A stretch of 64,000 bases of DNA from an uncultured Methanomicrobiaceae archaeon (lineage in GTDB: Archaea > Halobacteriota > Methanomicrobia > Methanomicrobiales > Methanoculleaceae): the NCBI GenBank assembly GCA_963826525.1, contig CAWGXH010000003.1, positions 1 through 64,000 of the forward strand, read 5' to 3'. Numbering within the stretch: position 1 is the first letter of the stretch; every line of letters starts with the position of its first letter. Below are positions 2,343-35,924 of this stretch, one piece after another. The notes under the pieces are model-generated. The model had not been told where the DNA came from. It searched no databases and saw nothing but the letters and a program-made list of their open reading frames with translations. Made by a program: the position numbers and the translations under genes.

Positions 2343-2348
2343 GATCTG

Positions 2349-6161: not shown

Positions 6162-6170
6162 CTGTAGAGT

Positions 6171-6604: not shown

Positions 6605-6677
6605 ACCCCCGTAGTGTAGTGGTCAATCATGCAGGACTTTGGATCCGGCGACGGCGGTTCGAATCCGCCCGGGGGTA
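6605..6677 (+). tRNA. tRNA-Gln (TTG)
   Basis: Acceptor ACCCCCG/CGGGGGT with A1-U72 (archaeal Gln), anticodon loop CTTTGGA, T-arm GGCGG-TTCGAAT-CCGCC. One mismatch in the anticodon stem; CCA not encoded. Confidence 0.95.
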
Positions 6678-6680
6678 CGA

Positions 6681-6714
6681 GGGCGGGGAATTCGGTTTTT
6701 CCTGCCCCCTTTTT
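6681..6714 (+). terminator. Hairpin + T-tract after tRNA-Gln
   Basis: GGGCGGGGAA...TTTCCTGCCC followed by CCTTTTT. Confidence 0.55.
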
Positions 6715-7329
6715 CGTTTCGAAGGGCATACGGTAGCAGGTGGAAAGATCTTCCGTACAGTGAATACTCCTGCGGATCAAAGCGCCTGTATGCATGGTAC
6801 CGGCAATCCGATCCGCAGGACCGATCGTGAGTGCGGCTTTCGATTGGGCTATCTTCATGTGGGGCTTGGCCACCTGGCGGAGGGGATATGGTCTGTATTG
6901 TCTGCCGGGATCTGGGCGGGCGTGAACCGTCGAGGCTGGCTCCGCTTCTTCACTCCTGTACGTTCACGAAAGGTAATTGAGAACCGGATAACTCTCTAAC
7001 GTAAGCAGACGTAACGTAGAGGGTGCTTTACCCCTGTAGGTTAATTATTGTTTACTTACAGCACGCTCATCTTGCAGGTGGTCTCTGCACGAAGGTCGGA
7101 GCGGCACCATCTCGATCCTCAAGGAGATGACTGTCCGGAGTCGCGAATCCTCCCCGGGTGCTGCCGGGACGGTTTCGTTCCCCGTGCCCTATATGTCCGG
7201 CGCTATCGGTGCCCTGCAGAGCCCGGTTTGGGAAATATATTTTCTAAAACACTTGTTTTTGAGAAAGGAGTGGCGCATAGGGGATGCAAAATGGAAACGT
7301 TTTTCCCCGGGCGGGAGAGATACCCATTC

Positions 7330-7548
7330 ATGGAAGACGAGCATTCGATTCGCGGACCCCGCGGCATCAGCGATCAGCCTTCCCGGCTGAAACAGCATTC
7401 ACAGGAGTCTCCCGCCGACGTCGTCAGGCGCCTTGCCGCCGAGACGGTCGACGACGAGTACGACGACCCCATAAAGACCTGGAAGTCGAGCCCGGTCTAC
7501 AAACTCGAGGTGCTCTGGAAGGACCGGCACCGGGAAGAGGCAGAGTGA
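7330..7548 (+). pseudogene. Degenerate LKxHPRETY-type antitoxin-like ORF
   Basis: SDQPSRLKQHSQESPADVVRRLAAETVDDE resembles RDRLNALKIHPRETYSEVIGRLVENSVDDE of 11861-12097. Confidence 0.5.
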
Positions 7549-7702
7549 CCGATCTCCGGTCGCTGCAATTACCATCTCTCTTTCGACAGAAGACCCCGTG
7601 AGCGGGGCAGATCCAGGCCGTTCCTGAACGCCCTTCGCAGGCGAACCAAAGGTATTTCTCGTAGCCGTGCTATTCTCGGTCATGGTCGGCACACCGGAAT
7701 GG

Positions 7703-7890
7703 ATGCAAAGGAGGATGCGACTCTGGCGGCACCGGGGGTACCGTCCGGCACGCGGCCCCGGCATGCTGAGGGCCGGGTATGCCGAGGTGCCGCTCGGGCG
7801 CGATGCCCTCCGGGCGATTCGGAAGGGGCTGCGGGATATCCGGTTCGGGCGGGTGCCCCGGCTCGGGGCGATCCTCGAGGAGGCTCGATA
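7703..7890 (+). pseudogene. Degenerate C-terminal half of the same antitoxin family
   Basis: EVPLGRDALRAIRKGLRDIRFGRVPRLGAILEE resembles DEPLSNETIKAIEASLEDLKAGRIFTLDEVMAE; boundaries uncertain. Confidence 0.4.
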
Positions 7891-7955
7891 TCCTGCAGGC
7901 GCCCGGCGAGCCCTCGAACGAGGCCTGATCGCGAACCCGGCGCACTATCCCGCCT

Positions 7956-8330
7956 CTACCGGGGGAGTACACCCGGCTCTTTTGGAGCACCGCAGGCACC
8001 GCCTGCCCGCTCGCGGGAGAGGTCGGAGAGGCAGCGGGGTTTTTGCATGAACCCGTTACCGCACCTGATGCACCGGTACTGGGAGTATGCGACTTCAAGG
8101 CTTCCGACATCGACGAACCCGAGCAACTCGCCCGGACTCCCGCAGCGCGGGCAGAGCGGCGTTGCCTCCTCCCGTCTCTTCTGTTTCGTGAGGAGGGCGA
8201 CTACCGCCTGGTTCGCATCGGGGTAGAGGCCTTCGTGGTCGTCCGTTCGCACCTTGTTCATCAGCCACCGATACAGCGTGCCCGGCAGCAGGAGGTCGAT
8301 CCGCTGGCGTTCTTCCATGTACTGGTCCAT
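7956..8330 (-). CDS. Ribbon-helix-helix-like protein fused to a Zn-ribbon
   Basis: IDLLLPGTLYRWLMNKV...YPDANQAVVALLTK, then CPRCG...CIRCG. TATA-like TTTATA near 8345 favours the Met at 8318 as start. Confidence 0.7.
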   Translation of the reverse strand: MDQYMEERQRIDLLLPGTLYRWLMNKVRTDDHEGLYPDANQAVVALLTKQKRREEATPLCPRCGSPGELLGFVDVGSLEVAYSQYRCIRCGNGFMQKPRCLSDLSRERAGGACGAPKEPGVLPR

Positions 8331-8435
8331 GGAACTCTGAAGGTATAAATGATACCAATGGGTAGCGAATGTTATCGCGCGTCTGCCGTAAAAAACGAGA
8401 TACTATATCGGTTCGTGCGGAGTACCTGAAGAAGA

Positions 8436-8732
8436 GTGATGGAACCCGCCGAGAACGTAACAAGCAGGCAGGTAGGGGTGCGGCTCCCCGGCCATCTCTA
8501 CCGGTGGCTGAAGGCGAAGGTGGACGGCGGCGAATACTCCAATATGGCCCAGTCCGTCATCGGGGAGCTGACGAAGGCGAAGGCGCTCGAGGAGCGGCGG
8601 CGCGAGCCGGTGGCCTACGAAGTCCGCGACGAACCGGAGAGCGATCCATTGCTTCGGCTCGTCAACGAGCGCCTGGACGAGGTCCGCCGCGAACTCCGGG
8701 GCGAGATCGAGCGCCGGCGGCGCGAGCGGTGA
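8436..8732 (+). CDS. Ribbon-helix-helix (CopG/Arc-like) regulator with coiled-coil tail
   Basis: QVGVRLPGHLYRWLKAKVDGGEYSNMAQSVIGELTK (beta-helix-GxY-helix RHH pattern), followed by a charged helical tail. Confidence 0.8.
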   Translation: MMEPAENVTSRQVGVRLPGHLYRWLKAKVDGGEYSNMAQSVIGELTKAKALEERRREPVAYEVRDEPESDPLLRLVNERLDEVRRELRGEIERRRRER

Positions 8733-8749
8733 ACCCGGGCGGGAGTCTG

Positions 8750-9120
8750 TTACGGAAAGAGGCCGGGGTCGACGCAGTCCCAGATCCGATACCCCTCCTG
8801 CCGGAGTGACTCTCTTCCGTCGATACTCCGTGCCGCAATCCCGACGGTAACCGCGCCCGATAACCCCCTGACCAGCGGCACCTTCTCCCGGAGGGCTGTG
8901 AGGATGCTCCGTGCTTCTCTCTCCGAGAGATCCCGATTCTTGATCTCGACAGCGAGGGTACCTTCGGTGCCGATGGCGAGCAGATCGATCTCATCGCCCC
9001 AGCGGTTCCACCACGTTCCGATCCGCTCGGTACTTCTTCGCCGAGAAGAATTCTGACCGTCTCCTCGAATGCGTGCCCGGCGAACGCCGACCACCTGGAG
9101 TCCCTTCTCGCGAAAATGAC
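8750..9120 (-). pseudogene. C-terminal DUF234-like fragment of an archaeal ATPase
   Basis: WSAFAGHAFEETVRILL (shifted frame), then IGTWWNRWGDEIDLLA...LAVEIK (PD-(D/E)XK-like). No P-loop region upstream. Confidence 0.7.
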
Positions 9121-9192
9121 CGACTGTCCGCCTTATCTGGCACACCCATCGGAGAATACTTCTGCCGTGAAGACAATCGCTTATCTACAGAC

Positions 9193-9507
9193 ATGCCAGC
9201 GGATAAAAGCCGGATTGTGGAATTGGTAAAGGAGGACGCCGTTCTCATCTCCCGTCACGCCCGAGTACGGATGTTTGAGCGGAACATCCGGACGGACGAG
9301 ATCATTGCCGTCATTGCGGCCGGAACGGTCATTGAGGAGTATCACGATGATGAACCGTGTCCTTCCGTACTGATCCTTGGTTTTATCGGGGAGCAGGCAT
9401 ATCATATTGTAGTGGCCATCTGCAATGATCACCTGCGGATAATCACCGCGTATGTACCATCGGAAGAAAGATGGACGGGTGACCGGATCCGGAGAGAGCA
9501 AAAATGA
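9193..9507 (+). CDS. DUF4258 (RelE-like fold) putative toxin
   Basis: SRHARVRMFERNI...GTVIEEYHDDEPCPSVLILG...HIVVA...IITAYVPSEERW. Confidence 0.85.
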   Translation: MPADKSRIVELVKEDAVLISRHARVRMFERNIRTDEIIAVIAAGTVIEEYHDDEPCPSVLILGFIGEQAYHIVVAICNDHLRIITAYVPSEERWTGDRIRREQK

Positions 9508-9749
9508 TTCCCAAAACGTGCAGCCTCTGCAAAGGAACCCTTGCTGAAGGAAAGACTGAGTTCCTCGTACGGGTACATGACGAGGTCATTGTCATCCGTG
9601 ATGTCCCGGCGTACATCTGCGATCGGTGCGGCGAGGCATACTTCACGGCAGAGATCTCACGGAAGATCGACGCGATTATGGATGAAGCACACCGGGGCAC
9701 TATCTGCCTGCATCCGCTCGCCGCCGGCGAGATCACGCTTGCCGAGTAG
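9504..9749 (+). CDS. YgiT/MqsA-type zinc-finger putative antitoxin
   Basis: CSLCKG...IVIRDVPAYICDRCGEAYF; ATGA overlap with DUF4258. Confidence 0.9.
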   Translation: MIPKTCSLCKGTLAEGKTEFLVRVHDEVIVIRDVPAYICDRCGEAYFTAEISRKIDAIMDEAHRGTICLHPLAAGEITLAE

Positions 9750-9824
9750 TGGCGTCTCGTGGCGCCTGCCGGCCGGCAGGAGAGTGCGATATCTTTTTCC
9801 CCGATTGGTATATATTTTTACCAT

Positions 9825-10370
9825 GTGGAACAAAATTTGACCATCCAAATCGTCGGCCTGCTCCTCAAAGGTGATTCATACCCGCGCAGTCTTGCAAAAG
9901 ATCTGGATGTTTCGCACCCTACTGTTCTGCGGAAGCTCAAGAGCCTCCTCGAAGAAAATGTCGTCGACTTCAGGGTCGAGGGAAAGAATACGGTGTACTT
10001 TCTGAAAAAGAGCATCGAAGCGCGGGTGTACGTCTACATGGCAGAGTGGTATTCGCTCGGGACGACGATCGAGTCTGCCCCGCACCTGCGTTCCATTATC
10101 AGAGCAATTCAGGAAGAAAAAGACGTTCCGCTTGCGATACTCTTTGGCAGTTATGCAAAGGGGACGCGAGGCCCCTCGAGCGATATCGACGTCTATCTCG
10201 AGACGAGCGACCGGGATCTGAAGCGCGACCTTGAAAGAAGGCATAGCAGGCTCAGCATAAAAATTGGCGTCTGGGATCCTGAAAATCTGCTTGTACAGGA
10301 GATCGTGAAAAACCATGTTATCCTGAAAGGGGTTGAACGGTATTACGAAAAGACAGGATTTTTTGACTAA
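9825..10370 (+). CDS. Winged-HTH + nucleotidyltransferase (MNT) fusion
   Basis: PRSLAKDLDVSHPTVLRKLKSL...EGKNTVY (ArsR-like wHTH) and ILFGSYAKGTRGPSSDIDVY (MNT). Start codon uncertain. Confidence 0.85.
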   Translation: MEQNLTIQIVGLLLKGDSYPRSLAKDLDVSHPTVLRKLKSLLEENVVDFRVEGKNTVYFLKKSIEARVYVYMAEWYSLGTTIESAPHLRSIIRAIQEEKDVPLAILFGSYAKGTRGPSSDIDVYLETSDRDLKRDLERRHSRLSIKIGVWDPENLLVQEIVKNHVILKGVERYYEKTGFFD

Positions 10371-10831
10371 GCTCTATCGAGAGAAAAAGATCCGGATTGT
10401 CGATCCGAGTATTCAGGTGCAGGGGGCGTACCGGAGCAAATCGGAGAGTTATCTCATCTCCGCAAAGATTCTGCTCGAAAACGGGCGGCTCGAAGAGACC
10501 GTATCGATGGCGTACTGACAGTATGTACTACATGCTGCTCGCACTCCTCTTCCGAACCGGCATCCAGTGCGAGAATCACTCCGGAGCGATGATCCTCCTT
10601 GAGAGGCTGTATGGAATCGACAACTCCCGGATCGCCGCCGCCAAACGGGATCGTGTCGATAAGCAGTACTATGTCGATTTCGAGATCACTGCCGGGGACG
10701 TAACGGAATCGATCGAAGAAGCGGAGGTGTTCTGTGCGGATCTGCTGGATTATATGGAGCGGTTGCACCAGGGGGAGATCACGCGCCTTCGCCGGGAGGC
10801 ACTCCGGCTCCTTGAAGGGCGGGGTGAGTGA
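10333..10831 (+). CDS. HEPN-domain protein (COG1895-like), frameshift near 10515
   Basis: KSESYLISAKILLE...VSMAY/YSMYYMLLALLFRTGIQCENH...RVDKQYY; overlaps the MNT gene. Confidence 0.8.
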
Positions 10832-11676
10832 GAGGACATCCCATAATTATAAGGCGTCTTGAATAAAACTCAGGGTGTATGGCATTCCGGGAAATTGACG
10901 ATGACCTCTGGGCAATCATCAAGCCGCATCTCCCCGCTCAGAAACCCCATATCGGACGTCCGCGAACCGACCATCGTGCCATGTTCAACGGGATTCTCTT
11001 TGTTCTGACCACCGGCTGTACCTGGAGCGATGTACCTCGTAACTACGGCATAAAATCGACGGTACACCGCTTTCACCTCCACCTCGCCGAGCACGGCATC
11101 TATCAGGACATTTTCCTTGACATTCTCCGCGCCGGGTATACTCTCCAGAAAATCGATCTCACGCATTGTTCCACCGATACCAAGGATATTCAAGCAAAAA
11201 AGGGGGATCGACCGGTTATGATGGCTATAAGAAGGTGAATGGGAATAAACTGAGTGCTCTGGTCGATCAGAACGGTCTTCCGCTTGCCTGCACCGTCTTC
11301 CCGGCAAACATCCACGATTCCCAACTCTACGAGTCAACCGTCGAAGCGTTTACGATTCCGGATGCCCAGGTTCATCCCACGATTATATCGGCAGATGCAG
11401 CTTACGATTCTCGAGAGATTCGCCAATACAACCGGAAGAGGCGAATAAAAAGCAACATCCCGATAAACCCACGATCCCGGATACATCCGAAGCGAGGAAG
11501 GCCACTCTGGTTCGATCCGGAACTGTATAAGAGGAGGAATGCCATCGAACGGTTTTTCAGCTGGATCGAGGCATTCAAGAAGATCGTTCCGCGATACGAG
11601 CGGTATGAGTATTCATTCCTGGGCCTCATTCACCTGGCATGTGCCATGATGATCTGGAGAATTATGGGATGAGCTC
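10832..11676 (+). mobile_element. IS5-family insertion sequence (two-ORF, IS427-like), 845 bp
   Basis: 17-bp terminal IRs GAGGACATCCCATAATT / AATTATGGGATGAGCTC (2 mismatches); 3-bp TGA target duplication (10829-10831 and 11677-11679). Confidence 0.92.
10879..11672 (+). CDS. IS5-family transposase, OrfA/OrfB joined by -1 frameshift
   Basis: OrfA: WAIIKPHLP...GRPR...GILFVLTTGCTWSDVP. OrfB: GNKLSALVDQNGLP...ADAAYD...YKRRNAIERFFSWI. In-frame slippery A_AAA_AAG at 11196-11202. Confidence 0.92.
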
Positions 11677-11860
11677 TGAAAAAGCACCCTTCCCCTCTCG
11701 AGCATCCTCCTGTAAGTACGCGATAATACGTGCAAGAATTGGAGTTAATTGAGATCGCCAGTGCAACAATTGTCCCCTGTTAGATGTTCGGCCGTCCGCA
11801 CGATTCCACATATTAGATCCGACGCAAATCCTTATGTGGTAAACCGCAGTATACCTCAGT

Positions 11861-12097
11861 ATGTCTTCTACGACGACGATCAAGATCGCGAGCGATCTCC
11901 GGGACCGGCTCAACGCCCTGAAGATCCACCCTCGTGAGACCTATAGCGAGGTGATCGGCCGCCTGGTGGAGAACAGCGTCGATGACGAACCACTGAGTAA
12001 TGAGACAATCAAGGCTATCGAAGCATCGCTTGAGGATCTCAAGGCAGGTCGCATCTTTACGCTGGACGAGGTTATGGCGGAGATCTCCGAAGAATGA
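11861..12097 (+). CDS. Antitoxin (LKxHPRETY family) of RelE pair
   Basis: TTTIKIASDLRDRLNALKIHPRETYSEVIGRLV...DEPLS...DLKAGRIFTLDEV; ATGA overlap with relE. Confidence 0.85.
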   Translation: MSSTTTIKIASDLRDRLNALKIHPRETYSEVIGRLVENSVDDEPLSNETIKAIEASLEDLKAGRIFTLDEVMAEISEE

Positions 12098-12366
12098 CCT
12101 GGCGTGTCGTATTCACGGCGACCGCACGGCATGCCATGAAACGTATACCTAAGCCGGCAGCGCTTGCAATAGGAGCCGAACTCGCATCACTTGCCGGAGA
12201 ACCCGATCCGAAAAGATTCGTGAAAAGACTGCAGGGATCACAGAATCCGCCATTCTATTCCCTCCGGGTCGGTGACTACCGGGCTATCCTCTCCGTCATC
12301 GATGATCTGGTGATCATCCATGTGGTCGATGTGGGGCATCGGAGTAGTATCTATCGGAAGTACTGA
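12094..12366 (+). CDS. relE: RelE/ParE-family toxin
   Basis: WRVVFTATA...KRLQG...YSLRVGDYRAI...VDVGHRSSIY. Confidence 0.9.
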   Translation: MTWRVVFTATARHAMKRIPKPAALAIGAELASLAGEPDPKRFVKRLQGSQNPPFYSLRVGDYRAILSVIDDLVIIHVVDVGHRSSIYRKY

Positions 12367-12451
12367 CACTTTTCTTTCACGAGGCTGCCTAGCCGGTCGG
12401 GCAATCGTCTTTTCATATCTCTACCGCCTGGATCCTGCTACGGAGCCCGGC

Positions 12452-12642
12452 GAGACCCCCATCCGGTAGCTCGTGCACCGGGAGCTTCCGCACGTCACCC
12501 GGGTACGCCCGTCTCCGTCGTCCTTGGGAAGTTCTCGGAGCACGGGCGGCACGACCTGATCGTCCTCGACGAGAACGGCGGCGTCGTCGGGGTGATCCTG
12601 CTCACCGATATCTTCGGTAGGGAATGCGGAACCACTGCATAG
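12452..12642 (+). pseudogene. CBS-domain remnant
   Basis: Manual translation: ETPIR*LVHRELPHVT/TPVSVVLGKFSEHGRHDLIVLDENGGVVGVILLTDIF; internal stop, frameshift, no start. Confidence 0.6.
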
Positions 12643-25201: not shown

Positions 25202-26000
25202 CTACTTCACGCCCGTTCCCTTGAAGAACGTGTAGCAGAACGTCCCGTCGGGCTCGCACGTCCGCTCGAGCCCCCGGATGCCGGCATTCCAGGTCTCCTC
25301 GTCGATGAGCCCGCTCTGGAGCGCCCGCTCCCGCACGCCCTCCACCATTGCGGTGAACGTCCGCCTGGTGAACCCGTCGATGAGACGAGGCCTGCTCGCA
25401 TCGACGTAGACCATGCGAGGCGAGACGCGGAGATCGCGGAATCCCGCCTCGGAGAGCAGCGGGTAGAGCGTCCGGCCGATCAGGGCGTTCCCGCCCGCGG
25501 CGGCCTGGAGATCCACCAGGCAGCGGATCGCAGCCGTTGCAGCGGCGTTCTCGGGAGAGAAGTACGTCGAGCCGTGATCGCCCTCGATGACGGTGACGGT
25601 GCCGCCGGGCTTGAGCACCCGGCGGAGGCCTGCGAGCGCAGCGGCAGGGTCACTCAGGTGCTCGAGGACGAAACAGACGAAGACGTGGTCGAACGACGTC
25701 GTCCCTGAAGGGGAGGTGCATGATATCGGCCTGCCCGAACCGGACGCCGGAAACCCTTCGGCGTGCCTGCAGGACGGAGGATGCGGCGATGTCCACGGAG
25801 ACGATCGTCGCCCCCGGGCTGTTCTCTGCCAGGATCACCGTCTGTGCGCCGACCCCGCACCCTGCCTCGAGCACCAGGCTCCCCGCAGGATAGCGGGTAT
25901 CGCCATGCAGCAGCTCCGTCAGTGTCTCCGCCTGATCGTGCAGGCGATCCGATTCACGCTCGGAATCGCCGTGGACGTACGCTCTCTCCCTGTCTGCCAT
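25202..26000 (-). CDS. Class I SAM-dependent methyltransferase (frameshift near 25697)
   Basis: VLEAGCGVG, VDI, ADIMHLPF / FDHVFVCFVLEHL...VLKPGG...EGDHG. Confidence 0.85.
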
Positions 26001-26074
26001 CGGTGCATCTCTCCTGTGTGTACAGATGTGTGCCTCGGGGTATATAGGTGGTCGCCGGAGGTACGGCGAGCCGG

Positions 26075-26845
26075 TTATCGCCTCTGCTGTTCGCATGCAT
26101 CGAGCAGCCGCTCCGCAAGCCCCCGCACCGCCGTCCTGGCAGGGCTGCCGTCCGGAATACCGACGATCGGCTCGCCGGCGAGATCCGCCTGCTCCACGGC
26201 CGGGTCTTCGGGAACGGTGGCTATCAGGGGGAGTACGGTGCCGAGCTCCGTCTCTTCTCTGTTGATGCCGTCCCGAACGCGGTTGACGCAGAGGAACATC
26301 CGGTCCTGCGCCAGACCGAGCGTTCCGGCGATCTCCCGTATCCTCCGGGCGGTCCGGATCCCCCGTGCACCGGGATCGCTCACGATGAGCAGAATGTCGG
26401 GGTTCTTCACGGTCCCCCGCGCGACATGCTCCATGCCCGCCTCGGAGTCGACGACGACGAACCGGTAGTCGCGCTCCAGCGTGCCGATGCACTCCGAGAG
26501 GAGGGCGTTCGGGAAGCAGTAGCACCCCGACCCTTCCGGGCGCCCCATGGCGAGAAGGTCAAAGCCTTCCGCTTCTGCCAGCACCCGGTGGAACCGGTAT
26601 TTGATATAGCCGGTGCGGTTCATTCCCGGCGGGATGCTCTCCGTGAAGGCCTTCTCGCGCACGTTCCCCAGCGTCTCCTCGAGTGGAATCCCGAGCGCTT
26701 CGTTGAGGTTCGTGTTGGGATCGGCGTCGACGGCCAGGACCGGCCGCTCACCCGCCGCAATCAGGGCATCGATCAGCAGCGCGGTGATCGTCGTCTTACC
26801 GGTCCCTCCTTTCCCGGATACGACGATGGTGCAGGGCCGGCTCAT
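26075..26845 (-). CDS. cooC: CooC/AcsF-type nickel-insertion ATPase
   Basis: SGKGGTGKTT, VDADPNTNL, MGRPEGSGCYCFPN (CxC), DSEAGMEH. Confidence 0.92.
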   Translation of the reverse strand: MSRPCTIVVSGKGGTGKTTITALLIDALIAAGERPVLAVDADPNTNLNEALGIPLEETLGNVREKAFTESIPPGMNRTGYIKYRFHRVLAEAEGFDLLAMGRPEGSGCYCFPNALLSECIGTLERDYRFVVVDSEAGMEHVARGTVKNPDILLIVSDPGARGIRTARRIREIAGTLGLAQDRMFLCVNRVRDGINREETELGTVLPLIATVPEDPAVEQADLAGEPIVGIPDGSPARTAVRGLAERLLDACEQQRR

Positions 26846-27877
26846 GCCGCTTCCCCCCGGGCACGGCGGGAGAGTTCGGCGGCGGTCCGCATGATCGCCT
26901 CCGCATCCGGCACGTCGGCGAGCCTGATGCCGCAGGTGGGGGTGATCAGCGAGCGCTCATGAAAGAGGCGATCTCCCACGAGATCGGTGACTTTGCTGCG
27001 GATCTGCACGAACCGGTCGAAGAGCGTATCGAGGCTCTCGGCAGCATAGAGGTGCGGTTCGGAGGGGACGATGCCCCAGGCGATCACCCCGCCCGCCTCC
27101 AGGTAGGCGGCCAGGTCGTCGGCGTAGAGGAGGAACTCCCGGGCGTGCTGGTACGCGTCGAACGAGATCACGGCTGGCCCAAGCGACATAAGGAAGCCCC
27201 AGTCGGTATTGGAGCAGCAGTGAACCCCGAGACTCCCCTCGAGGAGACCGGCGGCATCGGAGACGCTCGAGCGCACGACCTCCTCGTCGACCGGAACGAC
27301 CGAAGACCCCAGTGCCGCCAGGTACGGCTCGTCCAGGACGATCAGCGTCCGTTCGGCACCCGTCCGCTCACGCATGACCGTCTCGCACCACCTGGCCCGG
27401 AGCGCGATCATCTTGTTCAGCACGTCGGCGTATTCGGGGTCGTAGTGGATCGGCCTTTTGCGCTCGTCCACCACCTGCATCCCGAAGGTGACCGGCCCTG
27501 TCAGCTGGAATTTGAAGACGAGCGCGTCGGAGAGATCGAACGAGAGCATCCGGTGGAACGCCGAACCGTACGCCTCCCCGACTGCGTACGGGGCGGCGTT
27601 CCCTTCCAGGTAGTCGAGCAGGATCTGCTCCATCGCCGCCGCATGGCTGCCCGAGGTGTCGACCGTCAGCCGGTCATTCGCGATCACCCTGCCCGGGAGG
27701 TGTTCCGAGTCGCAGAAGACGATCCGTTCGAGGAGCCCTCTGCTTCGGGAGTGTCGGTGCGTACGGCACCCGGGGAAAGGCTGCCAGAACCGCCCGGCAC
27801 GCCGCGTCCGGGTCGAGGTGGGGAAGCGCCCCGATACCGGTCGCGTGCAGGTCCATCTGCGGGAGCATCGTCGCCAT
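26842..27877 (-). CDS. Core (folate-independent) methionine synthase, MesB-like (frameshift near 27745)
   Basis: Single MetE catalytic barrel: TGIGALPH, KFQLTGPVTFG, LDEPYL, GVHCCSNTDW, ISFDAY, GGVIAWGIVP, ITPTCG (Zn ligands H/C/D/C). Confidence 0.85.
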
Positions 27878-27881
27878 CCGA

Positions 27882-29783
27882 TCACCCCCGCCTCATCCTG
27901 CACGCCTCGAGCGTCTGCTGCACCCTCGGGAAGAGGGTAAGATCAGTATGCGGCAGGAAGCAGCTTGAGGTATACTGGTCCATGAACGACGGCTCTGCGT
28001 TCAGCTCGATGTAGGTGATCCGCTGTGCGAGGGCATCCAGCAGCTTGCGGGACCGCCGGTTGATCAGGGCGATGTTCGCGCCGGTGATCGCGCCGTTCCC
28101 GATGTTCTTCACCTGATCCAGCCCCACTTCGGGGATCAGCCCGATGGTGATGGCGTTCTCCTTATTGATGTAGTTCCCGAACGCCCCGGAGAAGTAGACC
28201 GTGGCGATCTCCCCGTGATCGAGGCCTGCCGCATCGAGGAGCGTCATGCATGCGCCGAGGATCGCAGCTTTGCTCATGATCAGGTTCTTGATGTCGTTCT
28301 CGGTGATGACGATATCCTTGGCGGCCGCCGTCTCCTCCTTCCACGCCACCACGAACTCCGGACAGTAGCGTCCCCTCCTGACCCGGGGATTTTCGATCTC
28401 CATGTTGATATTGCCGTTCCGGTCGATGACGCATGCGCGGATCAGCTCGGCGAGCAGATCGATGAGCCCCGATCCGCAGATGCCCTGCGGTCCGGCACCG
28501 TTGATCGTCGTGAAGGTCGGGGTGAGCGTATCGCCGTCGATCCGGACACGCTCGATCGCGCCCGGGTTCGCACGCATCCCGAAGAGCACCTCCCCGCCCT
28601 CGAGGGCCGGGCCGGCCGCGCCTGCGCAGGAGAGCATCCAGTCGCTGTTGCCGAGGACCGCCTCGAAGTTCGTGCCGATGTCCACCAGGAGCGAAACCTC
28701 CTCACGCTCTGCCATGCCGCTGGCCAGAATGTCGGCGATGATGTCGCCGCCGATGAAGTTGGAGACCGCCGGGAAGGTATAGACACCGGCATTCCGGTGG
28801 GTCGAGATCCCGATCCGGCCGGCGGCGGTCGAGAGCATCCGGCGCACTGCGGGCGTGTAGGGTTCTGCGATCATGTAGGCGGGGTCGATCCCGAGCAGGA
28901 GATGGGTCATCACGGTGTTGCCCGCGATCATCACCTCGAAGATGTCGTCCAGATCGATACCGGCGGCGTCGGCGGCGGCGCACAATGCATCGTTAATGCT
29001 CTCGGCTGCCAGCTGTTGCAGCCGGGCAAGGCCGCCTTTCCGTGCAAAGGTCACCCGGGAGAGGATGTCCTCACCGCAGCTGATCTGCTTGTTGTAGTTC
29101 GATGCCGTGGCCGCAATCCGGCCGTCTGCCAGACTCCAGATGTAGACCACGATCGTGGTGGTTCCGAGATCCACGGCAGCCCCGTAGAGCCGGTTGCTGC
29201 TGTCTCCTTCGTCCACGTGAAGCAGCCGGTATCCGCCGGGAACCAGCGCGACGGTCGCGGTCATATTCCAGTTTCCCTGGCGGAGCGTTCTGGGGAGGTA
29301 CTGGAGGACGTCCAGCGGCACGTAGATCCGGTTCGGGCGCGGACCTCCCTGCCGTTCGATCCCTTCGAGCACCCGGTTGACGTCCGGGGTGGTATCGTCC
29401 AGGGATGGCGGGGAGAGGTGGAGGACGTACTTCCGGACTGCGGGATCGGGCGGAATTTCCATCCCGGGAACCTCCACCAGGATCTTCTGCTGCTGCACGA
29501 GCGACTGTTCGGGAACCTCCACCCGCAGGTCGTTGACGACGAACGTCTGGCATGCAAGGCAGGCACCCCGTGCGGTCTCCTCGTCCGTAAAGAACCGGCG
29601 GTACTTCTCCAGGTCGAAGGAAGCGGTCCCGCTTTTTAGGAAGACAATGCATTTCCCGCATTTCCCCTGGCCGCCGCATACGACGTTCATGTGAAGGCCG
29701 GCCTCAATAGCCGCTTCGAGGAGCGAGTCTCCCTGGCGCACGGTCGCCTTCCGGTAACTGGGCAGGAACGTGACGGTGGGCAT
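27882..29783 (-). CDS. RACo-type reductive activator of corrinoid protein (2Fe-2S + ASKHA ATPase, COG3894)
   Basis: CGGQGKCGKC...LACQ ferredoxin, AVDLGTTT, FIGGD, VDIGTN, AGPALEG, GICGSG, SGAFG. Confidence 0.93.
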   Translation of the reverse strand: MPTVTFLPSYRKATVRQGDSLLEAAIEAGLHMNVVCGGQGKCGKCIVFLKSGTASFDLEKYRRFFTDEETARGACLACQTFVVNDLRVEVPEQSLVQQQKILVEVPGMEIPPDPAVRKYVLHLSPPSLDDTTPDVNRVLEGIERQGGPRPNRIYVPLDVLQYLPRTLRQGNWNMTATVALVPGGYRLLHVDEGDSSNRLYGAAVDLGTTTIVVYIWSLADGRIAATASNYNKQISCGEDILSRVTFARKGGLARLQQLAAESINDALCAAADAAGIDLDDIFEVMIAGNTVMTHLLLGIDPAYMIAEPYTPAVRRMLSTAAGRIGISTHRNAGVYTFPAVSNFIGGDIIADILASGMAEREEVSLLVDIGTNFEAVLGNSDWMLSCAGAAGPALEGGEVLFGMRANPGAIERVRIDGDTLTPTFTTINGAGPQGICGSGLIDLLAELIRACVIDRNGNINMEIENPRVRRGRYCPEFVVAWKEETAAAKDIVITENDIKNLIMSKAAILGACMTLLDAAGLDHGEIATVYFSGAFGNYINKENAITIGLIPEVGLDQVKNIGNGAITGANIALINRRSRKLLDALAQRITYIELNAEPSFMDQYTSSCFLPHTDLTLFPRVQQTLEACRMRRG

Positions 29784-31118
29784 CTAGGTCTTCCACTCCT
29801 TCTCCAGGTACCCGGCGAGTTCGGCCGCGTCCCGTGGGCCTACCAGCACCTTCCAGCCGGTTTCGTCCTCGATCTTCCCGGAGAGGGGGGCGGCATAGCC
29901 CGGGATGATCAGCCGCCGGTGGTCTACCTTTTCTTCGAGGCCGAACCGCTTGATGGACGCCGCCACCAGGGATTCGGTCAGTTTCCCGCCGGCGACTGCG
30001 GTGAGCACCGAGAGCCCTTCGGTGTCCACCACGAAGAGGTGGCAGGGGATGCGGGACGCCTCCAGGTAGCCGAGCAGGGTGAAGTAGGTGAGCGAGAAGT
30101 TCACCGAGAGGAGCACGGGAGCATCGCGCCCGGGTTCGTTGACCGGGTAGATGCCCGGCGTCATCTGGATGGGTTTCTGCGGGTCGGTGTAGATGTTCTG
30201 CCGCAGGGTGAGTGCCGCCTCCATGGAGGCGGGCGAAAGCGGCTCGGTGACGATGATCCCGGCGTACTTCAGGATGCCTGCTGCAAGGGCGGCGTCGGTG
30301 AGGCCGAGCGGTACGGTGTCGAAGACGATCGGGTAGCCGAGATCGGGGTCGGTCCGCTCGATCGCGGCCTTTCTGATCCGGGTCGCGGTGGCGATGAAGT
30401 CGCGGAGCGATCCCGGTGCGATATCCAGCATGAGGTCCGGGACGCCGGCATCGACACAGTTCCTGACAAGGCTGGCGAGCGACTTTGCGTCGCCGGCCCG
30501 TACCGCCAGCGGGCAGCCGTGGCGCTTCGCAAGCGCCGCACATTCGCGCCAGTTCCCGTCGGTTGCGGCATGGATGAGCGGCAGGAAGTTCCCGCACTCC
30601 GCCAGTGCCGCCTCGTGGGCTGCCGGGTCGGCGGCGATCAGAACCTCGGGCAGATCGCCGCAGGCCTCGACCAGCGCCACGGTCTCTGCAAACCGCGTCG
30701 GAGATCCGCTCTCGTTGCGGATGGCAATACCGTTGAGCATCAGGTCCGTCCCTACCCGGTGGACAATCCCGTCACGGACATCCTCCGCGACGGTCCGCAC
30801 CTGCTCTTCGGGCCAGGTATCGGAGATATGCACCATGATCCCCGGCGGGTGGTAGAAGGTCTTTTCATGCCGGAAAAGGACGAACTCCTCCCCGACAGCG
30901 ACCGATCGTTCCCCGACGCCGACCTTCACGAGCCGGATTGGGGGACGGGTCGCACCGCCGAGGAGCGCTTTGGTCTCGGGATCGAGGTCCGGACACAGCT
31001 CAACGTCCACCTTGCCGGCTGCAAGCTTCATGGCAAAGGCAAGGCAGGTGGGATAGCCGCACTTCTTGCAGTTCGTCTTCGGGAGGAGTTTGTAGATCTC
31101 CAGCGCCTTCATCGCCAT
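29784..31118 (-). CDS. acsC: Corrinoid Fe-S protein large subunit (AcsC/CdhE)
   Basis: LPKTNCKKCGYPTCLAFA...CP, LFRHEKTF, RQNIYTDPQKP, NFSLTYF, IIPG...GWKVLVGPRDA. Confidence 0.95.
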   Translation of the reverse strand: MAMKALEIYKLLPKTNCKKCGYPTCLAFAMKLAAGKVDVELCPDLDPETKALLGGATRPPIRLVKVGVGERSVAVGEEFVLFRHEKTFYHPPGIMVHISDTWPEEQVRTVAEDVRDGIVHRVGTDLMLNGIAIRNESGSPTRFAETVALVEACGDLPEVLIAADPAAHEAALAECGNFLPLIHAATDGNWRECAALAKRHGCPLAVRAGDAKSLASLVRNCVDAGVPDLMLDIAPGSLRDFIATATRIRKAAIERTDPDLGYPIVFDTVPLGLTDAALAAGILKYAGIIVTEPLSPASMEAALTLRQNIYTDPQKPIQMTPGIYPVNEPGRDAPVLLSVNFSLTYFTLLGYLEASRIPCHLFVVDTEGLSVLTAVAGGKLTESLVAASIKRFGLEEKVDHRRLIIPGYAAPLSGKIEDETGWKVLVGPRDAAELAGYLEKEWKT

Positions 31119-31120
31119 GG

Positions 31121-32060
31121 TTACACCCCCTCCCGGCCGGAGGCCGGCTTCATCGCCTCAAGTGCGCTCTTGAGACGTGCCACGGTCATCGGGTGCCGGA
31201 CGCAGACGATCGAGGCGCCTGCCGCCAGCGCAGAAAAGGCGGTGTAGAACTCCCAGGCAACCGCCATCGCGTCCCTCTCGCCGGCCGCCGCCTCTCTCAC
31301 CTCCCTGACCGCAAGCGCATCGGTGGCGGCGCTGATCATCGGCATGGCGAGATCGGCATCTCCGGCGAGCCCGGCCGTCCTGACCCGCTCCATCACCGAG
31401 TACCAGGTACTCGAACCCGTACCCGAGCGCTCCCGTATAGGGATCGATCACGATCCGGTCCCGCGCAACACCGGTCTCCTGCAGAAGGATGTTCAGCTGC
31501 TTTGCCAGGTTGATGTCGATGGGGGACTGGGCGATCACCGCATGGCCGTAGGCGAGCGCCGCGGCGGCGACGCTCCGGTAGCGGTCGGCTTCCGCGGTCC
31601 CGAGCAGAAGCCGTTCGCCCTCTCCGGCCTCGCCGCACCGCCTGAAGACCTCGCTGTCGAGCTCCGGTTCGCTGCTCCCCTCTACGATGAGGGGACGGGA
31701 TGTTGCCTCAAGCACCCGTTCCATCGTCCCGGTGATGGCTGAAAAATCGTCGAAACCGCGTCGCTTCGTGCTGGTGAAGTTCAGCCGCACCAGATCCGCA
31801 CCCCAGGTGCGCTCCGCCGTCTTCGCCCATTCGTCCGGCTGATCCGCGAGATCCCCCACGTAGTCGCGGATAACCGGCGGCCAGAACTGGGGCTCGTCGC
31901 AGATTTCAAGCGCGACGAGCAGCCGGTCGGGCCCGGCCTCCGTGAAGGGGAGAGCGCTCTCTCCGCCGATCCGGTAGGAGACCTCCCGCGTTCCCCCTTC
32001 GCTCCGGGTGGCGCCGAGCTGCACGTCGAGTATTGTATCCTCTTTCTCTGTCAATTGCAT
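31121..32060 (-). CDS. acsD: Corrinoid Fe-S protein small subunit (AcsD/CdhD), frameshift near 31402
   Basis: LGATRSEGGTR...IGGESALPF, SPIDINLAKQLN, DPYTGALGYGFEY / SVMERVRTAGLAGD...WE...RHP. Confidence 0.92.
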
Positions 32061-32068
32061 CTCCGTCC

Positions 32069-34100
32069 TCAAATAAGGGGTTTCATCTTCAGGTACCGGA
32101 TGGTCGACCCGCTCAAGGAACGCAATCAGGTCTTCAAGCGTCGGTGCGGTCGTCTCGTCCGCGATCTTCTCCAGAAGATCCGGCATGCCGAGCCCCTCCA
32201 GTCTCGCACGCAGCCGATCCCGCAGCTCCTCCTTGAGGGTCGCCGGCATCCAGACGACCCGTTCGATGCCGTTCTCCGCCTGGAGGAACCGGTCGCTGAC
32301 GATATAGTTCTTGGATACTCCGACGAACCCCGGGGTCTGCGCTCCGCCCCCGATAGTGCCGGCAAGGGTGGAGAAGGTCATCCCGAGCGGGGTCTCGCCG
32401 CCGAAGTCCCGGGTGACGATCAGGATACCGCTCGTCTCCGGGACGATGGCCGCGATGCACTCAAAGCATCCGCAGGCGGTCATCGGGTTCTCCAGCATGC
32501 TGTACAGGGAGACCCTGTCCGTCTCGCCGTGAGACGCCTTCTTCACGAACCGGTTCACGCCCGAGAACTCTCCGAGCACCGAATCGATCGCCTCGCCTTT
32601 CCGGACGGGCTGGTTTGCCCCGGCCGGGGTGATCTCGTATGCGATGCGGGCATCGAGCCAGGTGATGGCGCCGCAGAGCGCAGGGCGTTCGGGGGTGATG
32701 ATGCAGACGTGGTTTGGGGCGAACGTCTGGCAGAGGGTGCAGGAGTAGAAGGTCTCCACGTCCTCGTCCTTCATGCCGGCGATCCGCTCGTCCCGTTCGG
32801 CGTACAGTGCACGGGCCTCCGGGAGCATCTCCCTGACCTTTTGGCCGTCGGTGACCAGCGTCACCTGCACGGCATCGATATGGTCGGGAAACTCCATCCT
32901 GAACTTGTGGGCGAGCAGTGTTCCGAGATCGCCGATCGTCACCCCTTTGGCGACCGCATCCTTCGAGATACGCACCCAGATCAGGTCGCGCTGCGCGACA
33001 TGCCACGACCCCTCGCCGTAGTTGATGAACGTATGGATTCTCCGCTCCAGCACCGGTTCGTAGTCCTTCTTCATCCTCTGCCCTGCAACGTCCACGAGAA
33101 TGGCAAGGGGGAGGGCGGCGCCCGGGGCGACCGAGTCCACGTCCGGGCCGACGACGCTGACCGCACCGTCACGGACCTCATCCGCCGGACGCATCCGGAG
33201 GAGCTCGAATGCCGGTGTCCGTCCCCCGCCGAACTCCACGTACATCTCTTCCTTGCGGATGCTCTTCCCCTCAAAAGCGGGAGAACAGGCCATGGGGATA
33301 GGTATCGCAGTGACGGCGACCTTGATCCCTCGCATCTCCATTCCCGTCCTGACGATGTCGGCGGGAGTGGTGCGGATCCAGGTCCCTCCTTCGTAGCCGC
33401 CCGTCGTGAGGATCGGAATGCCGAGAACCTGCAGTGCCTCGACGAACGCGATCTCCTCATCCGTGAGACCGGGGAAGGCAACGACGAATGCTTTTGCCCG
33501 TTGTGCGGCGTAGACCAGCAGGCGGTCGAGATCGCCGGGCTGAACCCCGCCGAACATCATCGCGACACGGGCGATGATATCGGCAAAGTGGATTCCATCC
33601 GCCCCGTCGGGACCCAGCGGCACCAGGCGGTAATCGAGCCCCACGTGGACGCCGGCCTCGCCCAGGGTCGATACGACCCCGCCTGCGAGGAACGTGAGCA
33701 GGTACTTCTCCTGCATCTCCCTGCAGATGGCGGCCGCCGCTTCACCGCTCTCGGGCCTCCCTACGAGGAGACCGATGCCGACGACACTCCCGTCGACCAG
33801 CGAGTAGCCGAGCTTCCGCAGTACGGCATCGCCGATAAACCCCGTGTACGGCTCCCCTTTACCGCCTTCCGCGGCGCTTCGTGCCGCCATCAGGCACTCG
33901 GACGCGACGAGCGGATTCATTCCCGACCGCTCGTATGCATCCCGGGCCTCGTCTGCGGTCCGCACGGCCATGCCGGTGACGGCGTACGTAACGGGGAGGG
34001 CGTACGCAGTCCCTTCGTATGAGAACTGCCCCTCCAGCCGCTGCATGGCACTATCGAGGCTGGTATTTCCGTGCTGCACCGCCGCATCGATACTGTTCAT
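32069..34100 (-). CDS. acsB: Acetyl-CoA synthase, long bacterial-type (AcsB); +1 insertion near 32094
   Basis: N-terminal domain TAYALP...GFIGDAVLRKLG..LVDG; A-cluster motifs CTLCQTFAPNHVC...LCGA and MTACGCFEC; corrected end HPVLKMKPLI*. RBS GGAGGT and TTTATA upstream. Confidence 0.95.
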
Positions 34101-34211
34101 ATCGGTACCTCCTGTATGGTGAGATCGGAGTGCAAGGGTATAAATGGTCGCTCGCACGTCACCGCTTCCGGAGCGGTTGACGATGAGGAAGATCCGGCCG
34201 GGCGAGGATCC

Positions 34212-34808
34212 CTACGGCATCTCGCTCTGCTCCGCGGGGCAGAAGTTGCAGAGCGAGTGGGGCACGTCCTTCTCCCGGTCGCGGATGGGGCAGAGGAACC
34301 TGCCGCTCCTCTCCTCCACGGCAAACCCGCCGGGAAACGGCATCCCGACCGGGTGGCCGGGCCGGTCGAGGACGAACATCTCGAACGCCGCGACGAGATA
34401 GTAGAAGAAGCGGTGACGGGGCTCATAGTTGTCCGCCCGGGTATCGTCCCAGCGAAAGCACCCTTCCGGCACCATGGCGAAGTATGCAAAAGCCTGCTCC
34501 CGATCGGCGATCGGCCCGGTCAGGGCAGTGAAGCGCCCGCTCCGGTGCATCGAGAGGAGACGGTGGTATGCGCCGAGGATCTGCTCGGTGAAATACGGGC
34601 GCACCGCCTCGCGGTAAGGCGAGGGGAGATCGCGCACCTCACGGTAGAGCCGTCCGCCGATCACCTGGAGGTCGGCGAGCGTATACCGCTCCGCCTCTCG
34701 TGCAAGCAGCGTGCCGAGCTCCCCTTTCGTCCGTGCGGCTGCGAGGGAGCTGCAGACCTCCTCGATATGCAGCCGTTCGGGGTCTGCAGCCGGTCTATCG
34801 TGGTGCAT
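34212..34808 (-). CDS. DUF2115/UPF0305 family protein
   Basis: LPSPYRE...FVLDRPGHPVGMPFPGG...CPIRDREKDVPHSLCNFCPAEQ. Confidence 0.85.
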   Translation of the reverse strand: MHHDRPAADPERLHIEEVCSSLAAARTKGELGTLLAREAERYTLADLQVIGGRLYREVRDLPSPYREAVRPYFTEQILGAYHRLLSMHRSGRFTALTGPIADREQAFAYFAMVPEGCFRWDDTRADNYEPRHRFFYYLVAAFEMFVLDRPGHPVGMPFPGGFAVEERSGRFLCPIRDREKDVPHSLCNFCPAEQSEMP

Positions 34809-34868
34809 GGTGTTTGATCTTCCGGGTACGCCGGGAGGGGTAAAAAATTTCACTCCTCCGGGTCTTTC

Positions 34869-35924
34869 TCAGAGCCACCGTCTCCGCCAGAACCAGATCA
34901 GCATCGCGACTGCGATGGTCGCCATCCCGGCGAGCGCCGCCGGGTATGCCCAGTGGTAGCCGAGCTCGGGCATATACCGGAAGTTCATCCCGTAGACCCC
35001 GGCGACGAAGGTGAGCGGGATGAAGATCGTCGCGATGACGGTCAGGACTTTCATCACTTCGCTCATCCGCCGGCTCTGCTCGGAGAGGTAGAGGTCGAGG
35101 ATGCCGGCGGCCGTGTCACGGTAGGTCTCCACCGTCTCCGCCACCTGGACGGTATGGTCGTAGACGTCCCGGAGGTATACCCGCGTCGTCTTCCGGATAA
35201 GGGGCGACTCCCCGCGTTCGAGGGCGCTCACCACCTCCCGGAGCGGCCAGACCGAGCGCCGGAGTTCGATCAGTTCCCGTTTTGCAGCATAGATCGCCTG
35301 GAGGGTTCCTCCGTCCGCAGACGCGAGCACCTCCTCTTCGATCCCCTCGAATGCGTCTCCGTACTCCTCGAGCACCTGGAAGTAGCCGTCGACCACGGCG
35401 TCGAGCAGGGCGTAGGTGAGGTAATCCGCTCCCTCTTTCCTGATACGGCCCCGGCCGGACCGGAGCCGCTCCCGTATCGGATCGAAGACGTCTCCTGCCC
35501 GCTCCTGAAACGAAACGACGAATGAAGGCCCGAGGACCAGGCTGACCTGCTCGCTCCGGACGGCGCCCTCCTCATAGGACAGCATCTTCGTGACGACGTA
35601 GATGTAGTCTTCGTACTCCTCCGTCTTCGGCCGCTGCCGCGTGTTGACGATATCCTCCTCCGTCAGCGGGTGGAGGCCAGCACGATCCCCGATCGCCTTG
35701 ATAAGCCCGGTCTCGTAGAGGCCGTTCACGTTCACCCAGGTTATAGACCTGCCCCGAAGGTCGGGGAGGCTCTCCGGGGCGACGGCGCACTGCTCGTCGT
35801 AGTGCTGCTCGTCGTAGGTGATCACCGATATCGTGACGGGTTCGTCCTGCCGCTCGCCGATATGGACCAGCGTTCCCGGCGGGAGCCCCTGTTTCGATGC
35901 CCCTCGGGGCGGATCGGACGTCAT
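34869..35924 (-). CDS. corA: Magnesium/cobalt transporter CorA
   Basis: GLPPGTLVHIG, LHPLTEEDI...QRPK, IFIPLTFVAGVYGMNF..MPEL. Confidence 0.96.
   Translation of the reverse strand: MTSDPPRGASKQGLPPGTLVHIGERQDEPVTISVITYDEQHYDEQCAVAPESLPDLRGRSITWVNVNGLYETGLIKAIGDRAGLHPLTEEDIVNTRQRPKTEEYEDYIYVVTKMLSYEEGAVRSEQVSLVLGPSFVVSFQERAGDVFDPIRERLRSGRGRIRKEGADYLTYALLDAVVDGYFQVLEEYGDAFEGIEEEVLASADGGTLQAIYAAKRELIELRRSVWPLREVVSALERGESPLIRKTTRVYLRDVYDHTVQVAETVETYRDTAAGILDLYLSEQSRRMSEVMKVLTVIATIFIPLTFVAGVYGMNFRYMPELGYHWAYPAALAGMATIAVAMLIWFWRRRWL

Follow-up and report, generated by a model that had tools for sequence, protein, structure and literature searches.

The window analysed here is a 64,000-nt stretch of DNA from an uncultured Methanomicrobiaceae archaeon (assembly GCA_963826525.1, contig CAWGXH010000003.1, positions 1 to 64,000). 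Its minus strand carries a cassette of six genes which, in the sense of transcription, are ordered acsB-acsD-acsC-RACo-mesB-cooC and span positions 34100 down to 26075. They encode a bacterial-type acetyl-CoA synthase (ACS), the small and large subunits of the corrinoid iron-sulfur protein (CoFeSP), its reductive activator RACo, a homologue of the core methionine synthase MesB, and a CooC-like ATPase. With confidence that is evenly balanced, the cassette is read as an acetyl-CoA-cleaving methyl shunt, in which the methyl group would pass via CoFeSP to a thiol, most likely homocysteine.

In the proposed scheme, an AMP-forming acetyl-CoA synthetase, whose gene lies at another place in the genome, would activate acetate. 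AcsB, which would hold a Ni-Ni-[4Fe-4S] A-cluster matured by the CooC-like ATPase, would then cleave acetyl-CoA, so that the methyl group is transferred to Co(I) of AcsC/AcsD and CoA and CO are released. The MesB-like zinc enzyme would activate the thiol, most likely homocysteine, and accept the methyl group from CH3-Co(III), giving methionine and Co(I), and Co(II) formed accidentally would be re-reduced by RACo using ATP. The CO would leave the cell because the genome was found to be without a CO dehydrogenase (CODH). ACS is the only possible methyl source for CoFeSP within the cassette, and the MetE-like zinc enzyme the only acceptor-side methyltransferase. No CO source was found in this genome and 11 other carriers, and therefore only the cleavage direction would be possible in them. 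Homocysteine is the most likely acceptor thiol on the basis of family membership, and the chemistry is a plausible transfer of the model published for Dehalococcoides; that methionine synthesis would thereby be decoupled from methanogenesis is speculation.

The genes of the cassette are closely packed. The acsB gene (approximately 32069-34100) overlaps acsD (approximately 31121-32072) by 4 nt, as measured in the intact relative G052, and acsD is followed after 2 nt by acsC (29784-31118). RACo (27882-29783) abuts acsC with a spacing of 0 nt, mesB (26842-27877, with its ATG at 27877) begins 4 nt after RACo, and cooC (26075-26845) overlaps mesB by 4 nt (ATGA). The preliminary description of this DNA, which was made from the sequence alone, had reported six co-oriented genes with gaps under 10 bp or overlaps behind one start region near 34140, and both statements were borne out: gaps are 0-4 nt, overlaps are 4 nt, all six genes lie on the minus strand, and a TATA-like box (ATTTATAC, approximately 34145-34138) and a ribosome-binding site (AGGAGG, 34113-34108) 7 nt before the acsB ATG at 34100 were read directly from the sequence, both on the same strand. 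A sigma-70 scan of positions 25500-34900 returned 0 promoter-like sites, as expected because the host is archaeal. At window position 34159, approximately 14 nt upstream of the TATA-like box, G052 and the sequencing run X1 carry 26 extra bases; the promoter-proximal region differs between close relatives.

The AcsB protein matched NF040764 with 902.7 bits (cut-off 800) over residues 22-689 of a 999-aa open reading frame (ORF), as well as PF03598 and PF19436. It is a three-domain, bacterial-type enzyme with the N-terminal domain retained, and comparison with solved ACS structures gave E values of 6e-188 (8cjb_B) and 1.1e-180 (1oao_C). The A-cluster cysteines (CxxCx8Cx9C and CGC) were all aligned with those of 8cjb_B. 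AcsC (444 aa) consists of a Fe-S domain, a barrel and a corrinoid domain (PF04060 and PF03599) and scored 534.1 bits against NF003195 (cut-off 306). AcsD matched PF03599 in two pieces and reached 249.5 bits against NF003376, under the cut-off of 280, because its frame is broken at 31406; the intact acsD ORF of G052 is 316 aa long. RACo/AcsV (633 aa) showed its N-terminal 2Fe-2S, linker, middle and C-terminal ATPase domains, with PF00111, PF17650, PF17651 and PF14574 all above their cut-offs, and scored 566 bits against the equivalog model NF040756, below the cut-off of 800. The CooC/AcsF-like Ni-insertion ATPase (256 aa) matched PF01656, with no NCBIfam model above cut-off. Its deviant P-loop (GKGGTGKT) and metal-binding CxC motif (GSGCYC) were aligned with those of the closest solved relative, CooC1 (3kje; E 9.2e-23), and it may serve ACS, as AcsF does.

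CO dehydrogenase, methyl routes and distribution of the cassette

Domain scans of 10 + 53 ORFs revealed no CODH, AcsE or folate genes in the cluster or in the 64-kb window, in agreement with the preliminary description. The host is a methanogen because McrA is present, and the searches were extended to its whole genome, which is 87.6% complete. For Ni-CODH, PF03063 and TIGR01702 (CooS) gave 0 matches each, and for cdhA, TIGR00314 gave ferredoxin-domain matches only, none of them exceeding 24.2 bits (cut-off 781). The single CdhC of the genome is the bacterial-type copy, and CdhD-family genes are confined to the cassette. Genome-wide profile searches detected neither methylenetetrahydrofolate reductase (MTHFR) nor a MetH domain, and AcsE was not found in the genome. 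As a result, cdhA/cooS, acsE and metH, which the preliminary description had singled out for a check of the genome, were all missing from it, and MTHFR was likewise absent.

The only PF00809 protein of the genome was considered as a hidden AcsE and rejected: it is a dihydropteroate synthase according to TIGR01496 (193 bits, cut-off 162.6) and is encoded beside FolD. At this locus (L119; G000:C4:1418000-1422000), the genes for dihydropteroate synthase, FolD (NF010775, 536 bits) and CofE stand side by side. The methanogen thus encodes folate-type one-carbon enzymes, though without MTHFR, MetH and AcsE. For the activation of acetate, an AMP-forming acetyl-CoA synthetase was found at G000:C4:761539-763356 (TIGR02188, 858.7 bits, cut-off 725). 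This best gene has one in-frame TAG, and a second copy (C4:1689486-1691301) is split in two frames; these breaks are probably further assembly errors.

The distribution of the cassette was determined in a sample of 201 Methanomicrobiales genomes, comprising 200 that are at least 90% complete and the present one. The mesB gene occurred in 104 of the 201 genomes and bacterial-type acsB (over the cut-off) also in 104, and the two carrier sets, as read from the match tables, differed only by G045 and G095. CooS was encoded in 121/201 genomes and was equally frequent with the cassette (63/104) and without it (58/97). As order-level proxies for CODH, CooS and archaeal-type CdhC were used, the latter standing in for cdhA and recognised as a second CdhC match at model positions 296-701, and the overlaps between sets were tallied by hand. 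By these proxies, 12 of the 104 carriers, this genome included, were without both CooS and archaeal CdhC, and they are spread over three families.

A similar picture was obtained in the family sample (55 genomes, this one included), in which mesB was present in 20 genomes and CdhC in 21. The only archaeal-type CdhC of the family was that of G001, where it adjoins a cdhA-like gene. Twelve of the 20 family carriers had CooS and eight did not, and CooS occurred in 19 of the 34 genomes without the cassette. The CooS-less carriers include G052, G015 and G031 (each 99% complete) and G029 (93%), and four of the eight are at least 93% complete.

Gene order was surveyed in 80 loci fetched with the MesB family profile. 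The six-gene order was found in 25/33 Methanomicrobiales loci, and the other 8 were cut by contig ends or contained inserted DNA, none being rearranged. All 6 fetched relatives whose loci reach acsB kept the order, and G053 keeps the order of the other five genes. The complete order was also present in one bacterial metagenome-assembled genome (MAG; L118), and a second bacterial MAG (L107) showed RACo-mesB-cooC at a contig start. Two Methanomassiliicoccales loci had mesB-cooC beside a divergent acsC-acsD-acsB, and in one Chloroflexota locus (L116) RACo and cooC lie close by on the other strand. The remaining 42 bacterial loci, mostly of Chloroflexota including Dehalococcoidia, had mesB standing alone within the fetched flanks. 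These results showed that the cassette is a conserved six-gene unit of Methanomicrobiales, more than would arise by chance.

The MesB-like enzyme

The closest relative of the window's MesB-like protein, at 95% identity, is a 344-aa protein whose source is named as Methanoculleus taiwanensis, and G052 encodes a protein identical to that relative. Intact relatives are 341-347 aa long, which is the size of a single MetE-like barrel without the folate-binding N-terminal domain. The product matched no Pfam family up to E 10 and no NCBIfam model up to E 0.01, and a phmmer search of PDB gave a chance-level match only (E 0.061). The family profile gave 4 matches in PDB with E values of 0.18-0.42, one of which was the methionine synthase 3rpd, and PF01717 was touched by only 6/47 family members (best E 2.5e-5). 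An exhaustive homologue search collected 1409 representatives at E <=0.001.

The relationship was established by profile comparison and structure. The hhalign comparison of the MesB-like family with the MesA-type synthase of the same genome (G000:C4:307403-308254) gave a probability of 97.5% and an E value of 7e-12, with the zinc motifs aligned. The AF2 model (pLDDT 96.4, pTM 0.93) was matched best by Foldseek to the MetE catalytic domain 1t7l (E 1.7e-7, query TM-score 0.60), followed by 3rpd and then by corrinoid methyltransferases and URO-D. The MesB-like protein is thus homologous to MetE/MesA.

In an alignment of 47 homologues (A1), the zinc ligands His219, Cys221 and Asp240 were invariant, and Cys315 was present in 46/47. 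All four ligands were present in 29/29 cassette-clade proteins (alignment A2) and in the protein of the window itself. This HCDC site is that of the characterised MesB, the D. mccartyi enzyme, in the account of Price, Deutschbauer and Arkin (2021, PLoS Genet, PMC7857596), who defined MesB and stated that it occurs in some Methanomicrobiales; the published thresholds for the sequence score to D. mccartyi DET0516 are 130 or 173 bits. The nearest relatives outside the order were found in Dehalococcoidia and Chloroflexota (36-38% identity, E 1e-67 to 3e-73) and also in Methanomassiliicoccales. In a quick tree, all 35 Methanomicrobiales rows formed one clade on a stem of 1.11 changes per site, with sub-clades following genera.

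Alternative readings and the state of the assembly

Several observations weigh against the proposed shunt. The genome is 87.6% complete, and the missing CODH is therefore no proof of its absence; the same lack was found in a 99%-complete near relative. Among the carriers of the order, CooS is encoded in 63/104 and a second, archaeal-type CdhC in 59/104, so that the cassette is not specific to CODH-free cells, and the synthetic direction is possible in many of them. The preliminary description had named a CODH elsewhere, joined with these subunits, as an outcome contrary to its proposal; none was found in this genome, but CooS is common among the other carriers. Moreover, L054, G104, G151, G153 and G191 carry a cooS at a distance of 2-4 kb from the cassette, downstream and in the same orientation (the latter four by coordinates), and in L054 (11998-14700) a second cooC comes after it. 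The hosts are Methanoregulaceae-like, and this arrangement may point to a link between the cassette and CO handling in some lineages.

On the acceptor side, the preliminary description had proposed a genome check for mesA, and a MesA-type synthase (PF01717, 158.8 bits) was indeed found alongside the cassette. As judged by PF01717, MesA is present in this genome and in 199/201 genomes sampled from the order, where MesB never occurs as the only synthase. The cassette is therefore nowhere needed as the sole methionine synthase and would be at most a second route. Two positions that are predicted to bind homocysteine (Ser433 and Asp599 in E. coli MetE numbering) are altered in the cassette clade. 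The equivalent of Ser433 (position 17/344) is Ala in 22/29 cassette-clade proteins as compared with Ser in 41/47 family-wide, and the equivalent of Asp599 (position 182/344) is Asn or Ser in 25/29 as compared with Asp in 43/47. The protein of the window has Ala at the former and retains Asp at the latter, and the Glu beside the Asp599 equivalent is kept in 28/29 clade members. The Ser-to-Ala change was rejected as a clean marker of the cassette clade, as Ser is retained in part of the Methanoculleus proteins and missing from some bacterial ones. With these residues altered, methionine is a product that we infer, and the acceptor is uncertain. Overall, the module read in the preliminary description (acetyl-CoA to CH3-CoFeSP to homocysteine) is supported in part.

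Two further points belong here. Prediction of the AcsC-MesB complex with our own alignments gave a score of 0.57, the best of 3 controls being 0.00, with at least 78% contact agreement between runs and partner pLDDT of at least 89. The mark applied was reached by 58/80 solved complexes and 2/110 mismatched pairs; passes at a score of 0.60 or below comprised only 7 of the 80 solved complexes and both passing mismatches. The prediction thus lends weak support to an interaction, and the weakness of its pass counts against the proposed shunt. In addition, the literature search found no experiments on any methanogen cassette.

The altered residues bear most directly on the possibility that the pathway is unchanged as far as CH3-CoFeSP, with the MesB-like enzyme then methylating a different thiol, such as coenzyme M or another small thiol, in a methyl-thiol shunt. 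We regard this as unlikely, although it would account for the replacement of the Ser433 and Asp599 equivalents in most clade members, and a G-[IV]-G-A-L-P motif in 103/120 close homologues also favours it. Nothing forces MesB to stay a methionine synthase where MesA is so nearly universal, the clade stands apart on its long stem from bacterial and Methanomassiliicoccales MesB, and a Methanosarcina corrinoid methyltransferase (4ay7/4ay8) ranks just below MetE among the fold matches. However, the zinc site is exactly that of the characterised MesB, the neighbouring Glu is nearly always kept, and the Asp is retained in the protein of the window. A bacterial MAG, which would have no coenzyme M, also carries this six-gene cassette, and by rough reckoning the ATP cost of a catabolic route from acetate to methyl-coenzyme M via an AMP-forming synthetase would exceed its ATP yield.

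A related proposal, which seems to us quite unlikely, is that the Methanomicrobiales enzyme has been re-tuned, so that some thiol other than homocysteine would receive the methyl group that CoFeSP obtains from acetate. It is suggested because the homocysteine-binding Ser and Asp are lost in most members and MesA is always alongside. If it were true, approximately half of the order would possess an unrecognised, CODH-independent acetyl-CoA-to-methyl-thiol shunt, and 'hydrogenotrophic' methanogens would be sources of free CO.

The frequency of CooS among carriers, together with the cooS genes just downstream of the cassette in L054 (with its second cooC), G104, G151, G153 and G191, could also be taken to mean that the cassette runs in the synthetic direction. 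An unlinked CooS, the archaeal acetyl-CoA decarbonylase/synthase or the surroundings would then supply CO to be joined with a methyl group to form acetyl-CoA, and CoFeSP would receive this methyl group either through an unlinked enzyme or through MesB working in reverse from a methyl-thioether. Consistent with this, AcsB keeps the N-terminal domain which serves for CODH docking in bacterial enzymes. Nevertheless, this reading, including its source of methyl groups, is considered distinctly improbable. Twelve of the 104 carriers, this genome among them, encode no CooS and no archaeal CdhC, the frequency of CooS is the same with and without the cassette, no AcsE-type methyltransferase is encoded in the cassette or the genome, and the archaeal enzyme is already available for the task in 59/104 carriers. 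The acetyl-CoA-cleaving shunt to homocysteine remains our preferred reading.

Three frames of the operon are broken in this assembly, which the preliminary description had not noted. The breaks were located by comparison with the closest relative G052, which shares 92.6% nucleotide identity with the window over an 11.6-kb alignment spanning the operon, and with run X1. An extra single base near 27742/27743 makes the mesB frame slip after codon 45, and mesB accordingly appeared in the whole-genome search as two matches (residues 1-46 and 45-344). A second extra base at 31406 breaks acsD, whose PF03599 pieces lie at 31407-32021 and 31289-31432, and a third near 32092-32094 shifts the last acsB codons into the acsD frame, which produces the 999-aa ORF. 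Apart from these three bases, the operon is without stop codons in the proper frames. The preliminary description had called the ligands intact, and this stands for the A-cluster Cys and the Zn ligands; the reading frames of mesB, acsD and acsB themselves are broken by the three extra bases.

Relatives carry these genes in intact frames, and the breaks of the window are therefore read as artefacts. The acsB and acsD genes lie in different frames in 5/6 relatives holding both (the G053 locus starts inside acsD), and in G031, where they share a frame, acsB is nevertheless a separate, unfused 685-aa open frame. A real AcsB-AcsD fusion, as the 999-aa ORF might suggest, was rejected, as it rests on one extra base at approximately 32092 and the frames are separate in relatives. 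The mesB gene is contiguous in 6/7 fetched relatives. In the seventh, G049 (L031:4499-7267), RACo (residues 1-573) and MesB (from residue 45) are combined in one ORF of 922 aa that lacks the junction region, which may be either a real fusion or an assembly artefact of the MAG. A search of sequencing runs listed 3 DNA runs and no RNA run. The best of them, X1, contained only 0.27 of the sampled words and represents a relative like G052 that shares the 26-nt difference at 34159 and is without the three extra bases, although it may not be independent of G052.

Similar single-base breaks relative to G052 were found at no fewer than 8 sites in conserved genes of the flanks. The topoisomerase ORF is hit at 18258 and 19409, an XPD-like helicase at 38075, DNA polymerase B at 47745 and a radical-SAM gene at 61293 and 62138; two more breaks lie near 14923 and at 58946. 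Approximately 54 kb of the window could be aligned to G052, and long ORFs of G052 with 85-97% identity to the window are divided there among different frames. Isolated single-base indels relative to G052, mostly insertions, recur every 4-5 kb or so along the window. The assembly consists of 16 contigs at 87.6% completeness. On these comparisons, the three operon breaks are read as assembly errors and not as gene decay, because the same kind of break hits essential flanking genes, which cannot all be pseudogenes; the genes are not literally intact in this assembly. That the operon is instead decaying in this strain, with mesB, acsD and acsB as pseudogenes, would suit the occurrence, in 8 kb of coding sequence, of three one-base insertions that are all absent from G052 and run X1, but it is extremely improbable in view of the like indels in the flanking genes, the split second copy of acetyl-CoA synthetase, the incompleteness of the 16-contig assembly, and the close identity to G052 without further stops. 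For this window, the apparent AcsB-AcsD fusion and the broken mesB are thus best read as assembly errors, and ORF-based readings of this genome need care.

The operon is flanked by housekeeping genes, with DUF2115, CorA and a mechanosensitive channel on one side and a SAM-methyltransferase and adenylosuccinate lyase on the other. The class-I SAM-dependent methyltransferase gene (25202-25991, minus strand) lies on the same strand approximately 80 nt downstream of cooC and is split here into two ORFs (approximately 25650-25991 and 25202-25618); it also follows the cassette in G052 and G053 and was not seen in the other fetched relatives. Farther out, the window encodes threonyl-tRNA synthetase, a topoisomerase, GatE, a helicase and PolB. 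The region from 1 to 12600 has a lower G+C content (0.52-0.59), aligns poorly to G052 and looks variable or mobile. It encodes an ATPase (AAA_14/DUF4143) that is fused to a nucleotidyltransferase domain, as well as DUF4258, a further nucleotidyltransferase and, in two ORFs (10879-11672), a transposase of the IS4/5 family.

Comparison with known systems

Two elements of this proposal, the mesB-acsCD operon of methanogens and the shunt model for Dehalococcoides, are already in print. Price et al. (2021, PMC7857596) described a MesB-family gene that seems to share an operon with acsC and acsD in methanogens that also have MesA, and inferred CoFeSP as the methyl donor of MesB; the same mesB-acsC-acsD linkage is found here. 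The operon had been presented in the preliminary description as direct genomic linkage for the MesB-CoFeSP hypothesis; this linkage is not new, as it is in that paper and the mechanism is in Deobald et al. (2020, PMC7005905). In the main text of Price et al., acsB, RACo and cooC are not mentioned as operon members, and neither is a lack of CODH, although Fig 3B and S1 Table of that paper may show more; the terms 'CODH', 'carbon monoxide', 'cooC', 'RACo' and 'Methanoculleus' have 0 occurrences each in that text. The literature search found no paper on a CODH-less ACS in Methanoculleus-type or Methanomicrobiales carriers. The present analysis adds that bacterial-type acsB and mesB are inherited together almost without exception in the order, that MesA is constantly present, that 12 carriers have no CODH proxy, that a cooS occasionally lies downstream of the cassette and that substrate-site residues are altered.

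If the proposed shunt is real, many 'purely hydrogenotrophic' methanogens would cleave acetyl-CoA for a biosynthetic methyl group, and carriers without CODH would release CO into anoxic communities. The MesB-CoFeSP hypothesis so far rests on Dehalococcoides, a genetically unmanipulable host; in cultured strains of the Methanoculleus type that carry or lack the cassette it could be tested directly.

A close counterpart is the incomplete Wood-Ljungdahl pathway of Dehalococcoides (Deobald et al. 2020; Zhuang et al. 2014, as cited there). For D. mccartyi, Deobald et al. (2020, PMC7005905) proposed a route from acetate via acetyl-CoA, AcsB and CoFeSP to core-MetE with CO leaving the cell, which explains the missing CODH. 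Methionine there receives its methyl group from acetate C2 and CO is released (earlier work discussed in Deobald et al. 2020), and the same labelling result is discussed in section 8 of Price et al. (2021). As in this genome, AcsB and AcsCD occur in Dehalococcoides without CODH, AcsE and MetF; however, MesB is the only methionine synthase there, whereas MesA is also present here. Furthermore, mesB of Dehalococcoidia stands alone within the fetched flanks, whereas here all parts, together with RACo and CooC, are joined in one operon, and the present host is a methanogen with methyl-tetrahydromethanopterin at hand.

The cassette resembles the acs cluster of Moorella thermoacetica and Carboxydothermus hydrogenoformans in its three-domain AcsB, AcsC/AcsD, RACo and CooC-type maturase. 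Unlike the classical bacterial cluster, it contains neither acsA/cooS nor acsE, and a MetE-like zinc methyltransferase occupies the place where a methyltransferase partner of CoFeSP would be expected. The archaeal CdhABCDE complex shares the A-cluster chemistry and the corrinoid protein, and it occurs alongside the cassette in many Methanoregulaceae-like genomes, as judged by the second CdhC match. Archaeal CdhC, however, is without the N-terminal domain and is encoded beside cdhA, whereas this genome has only the bacterial-type copy. Finally, MesA, the core methionine synthase of methanogens with MtrA as its predicted donor (Price et al. 2021, PMC7857596), is likewise a zinc-dependent, folate-independent MetE-like barrel and is homologous to the cassette protein. 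The MesA of this genome matches PF01717 and is unlinked to CoFeSP genes, whereas the cassette protein matches no Pfam family and is encoded within the CoFeSP operon.

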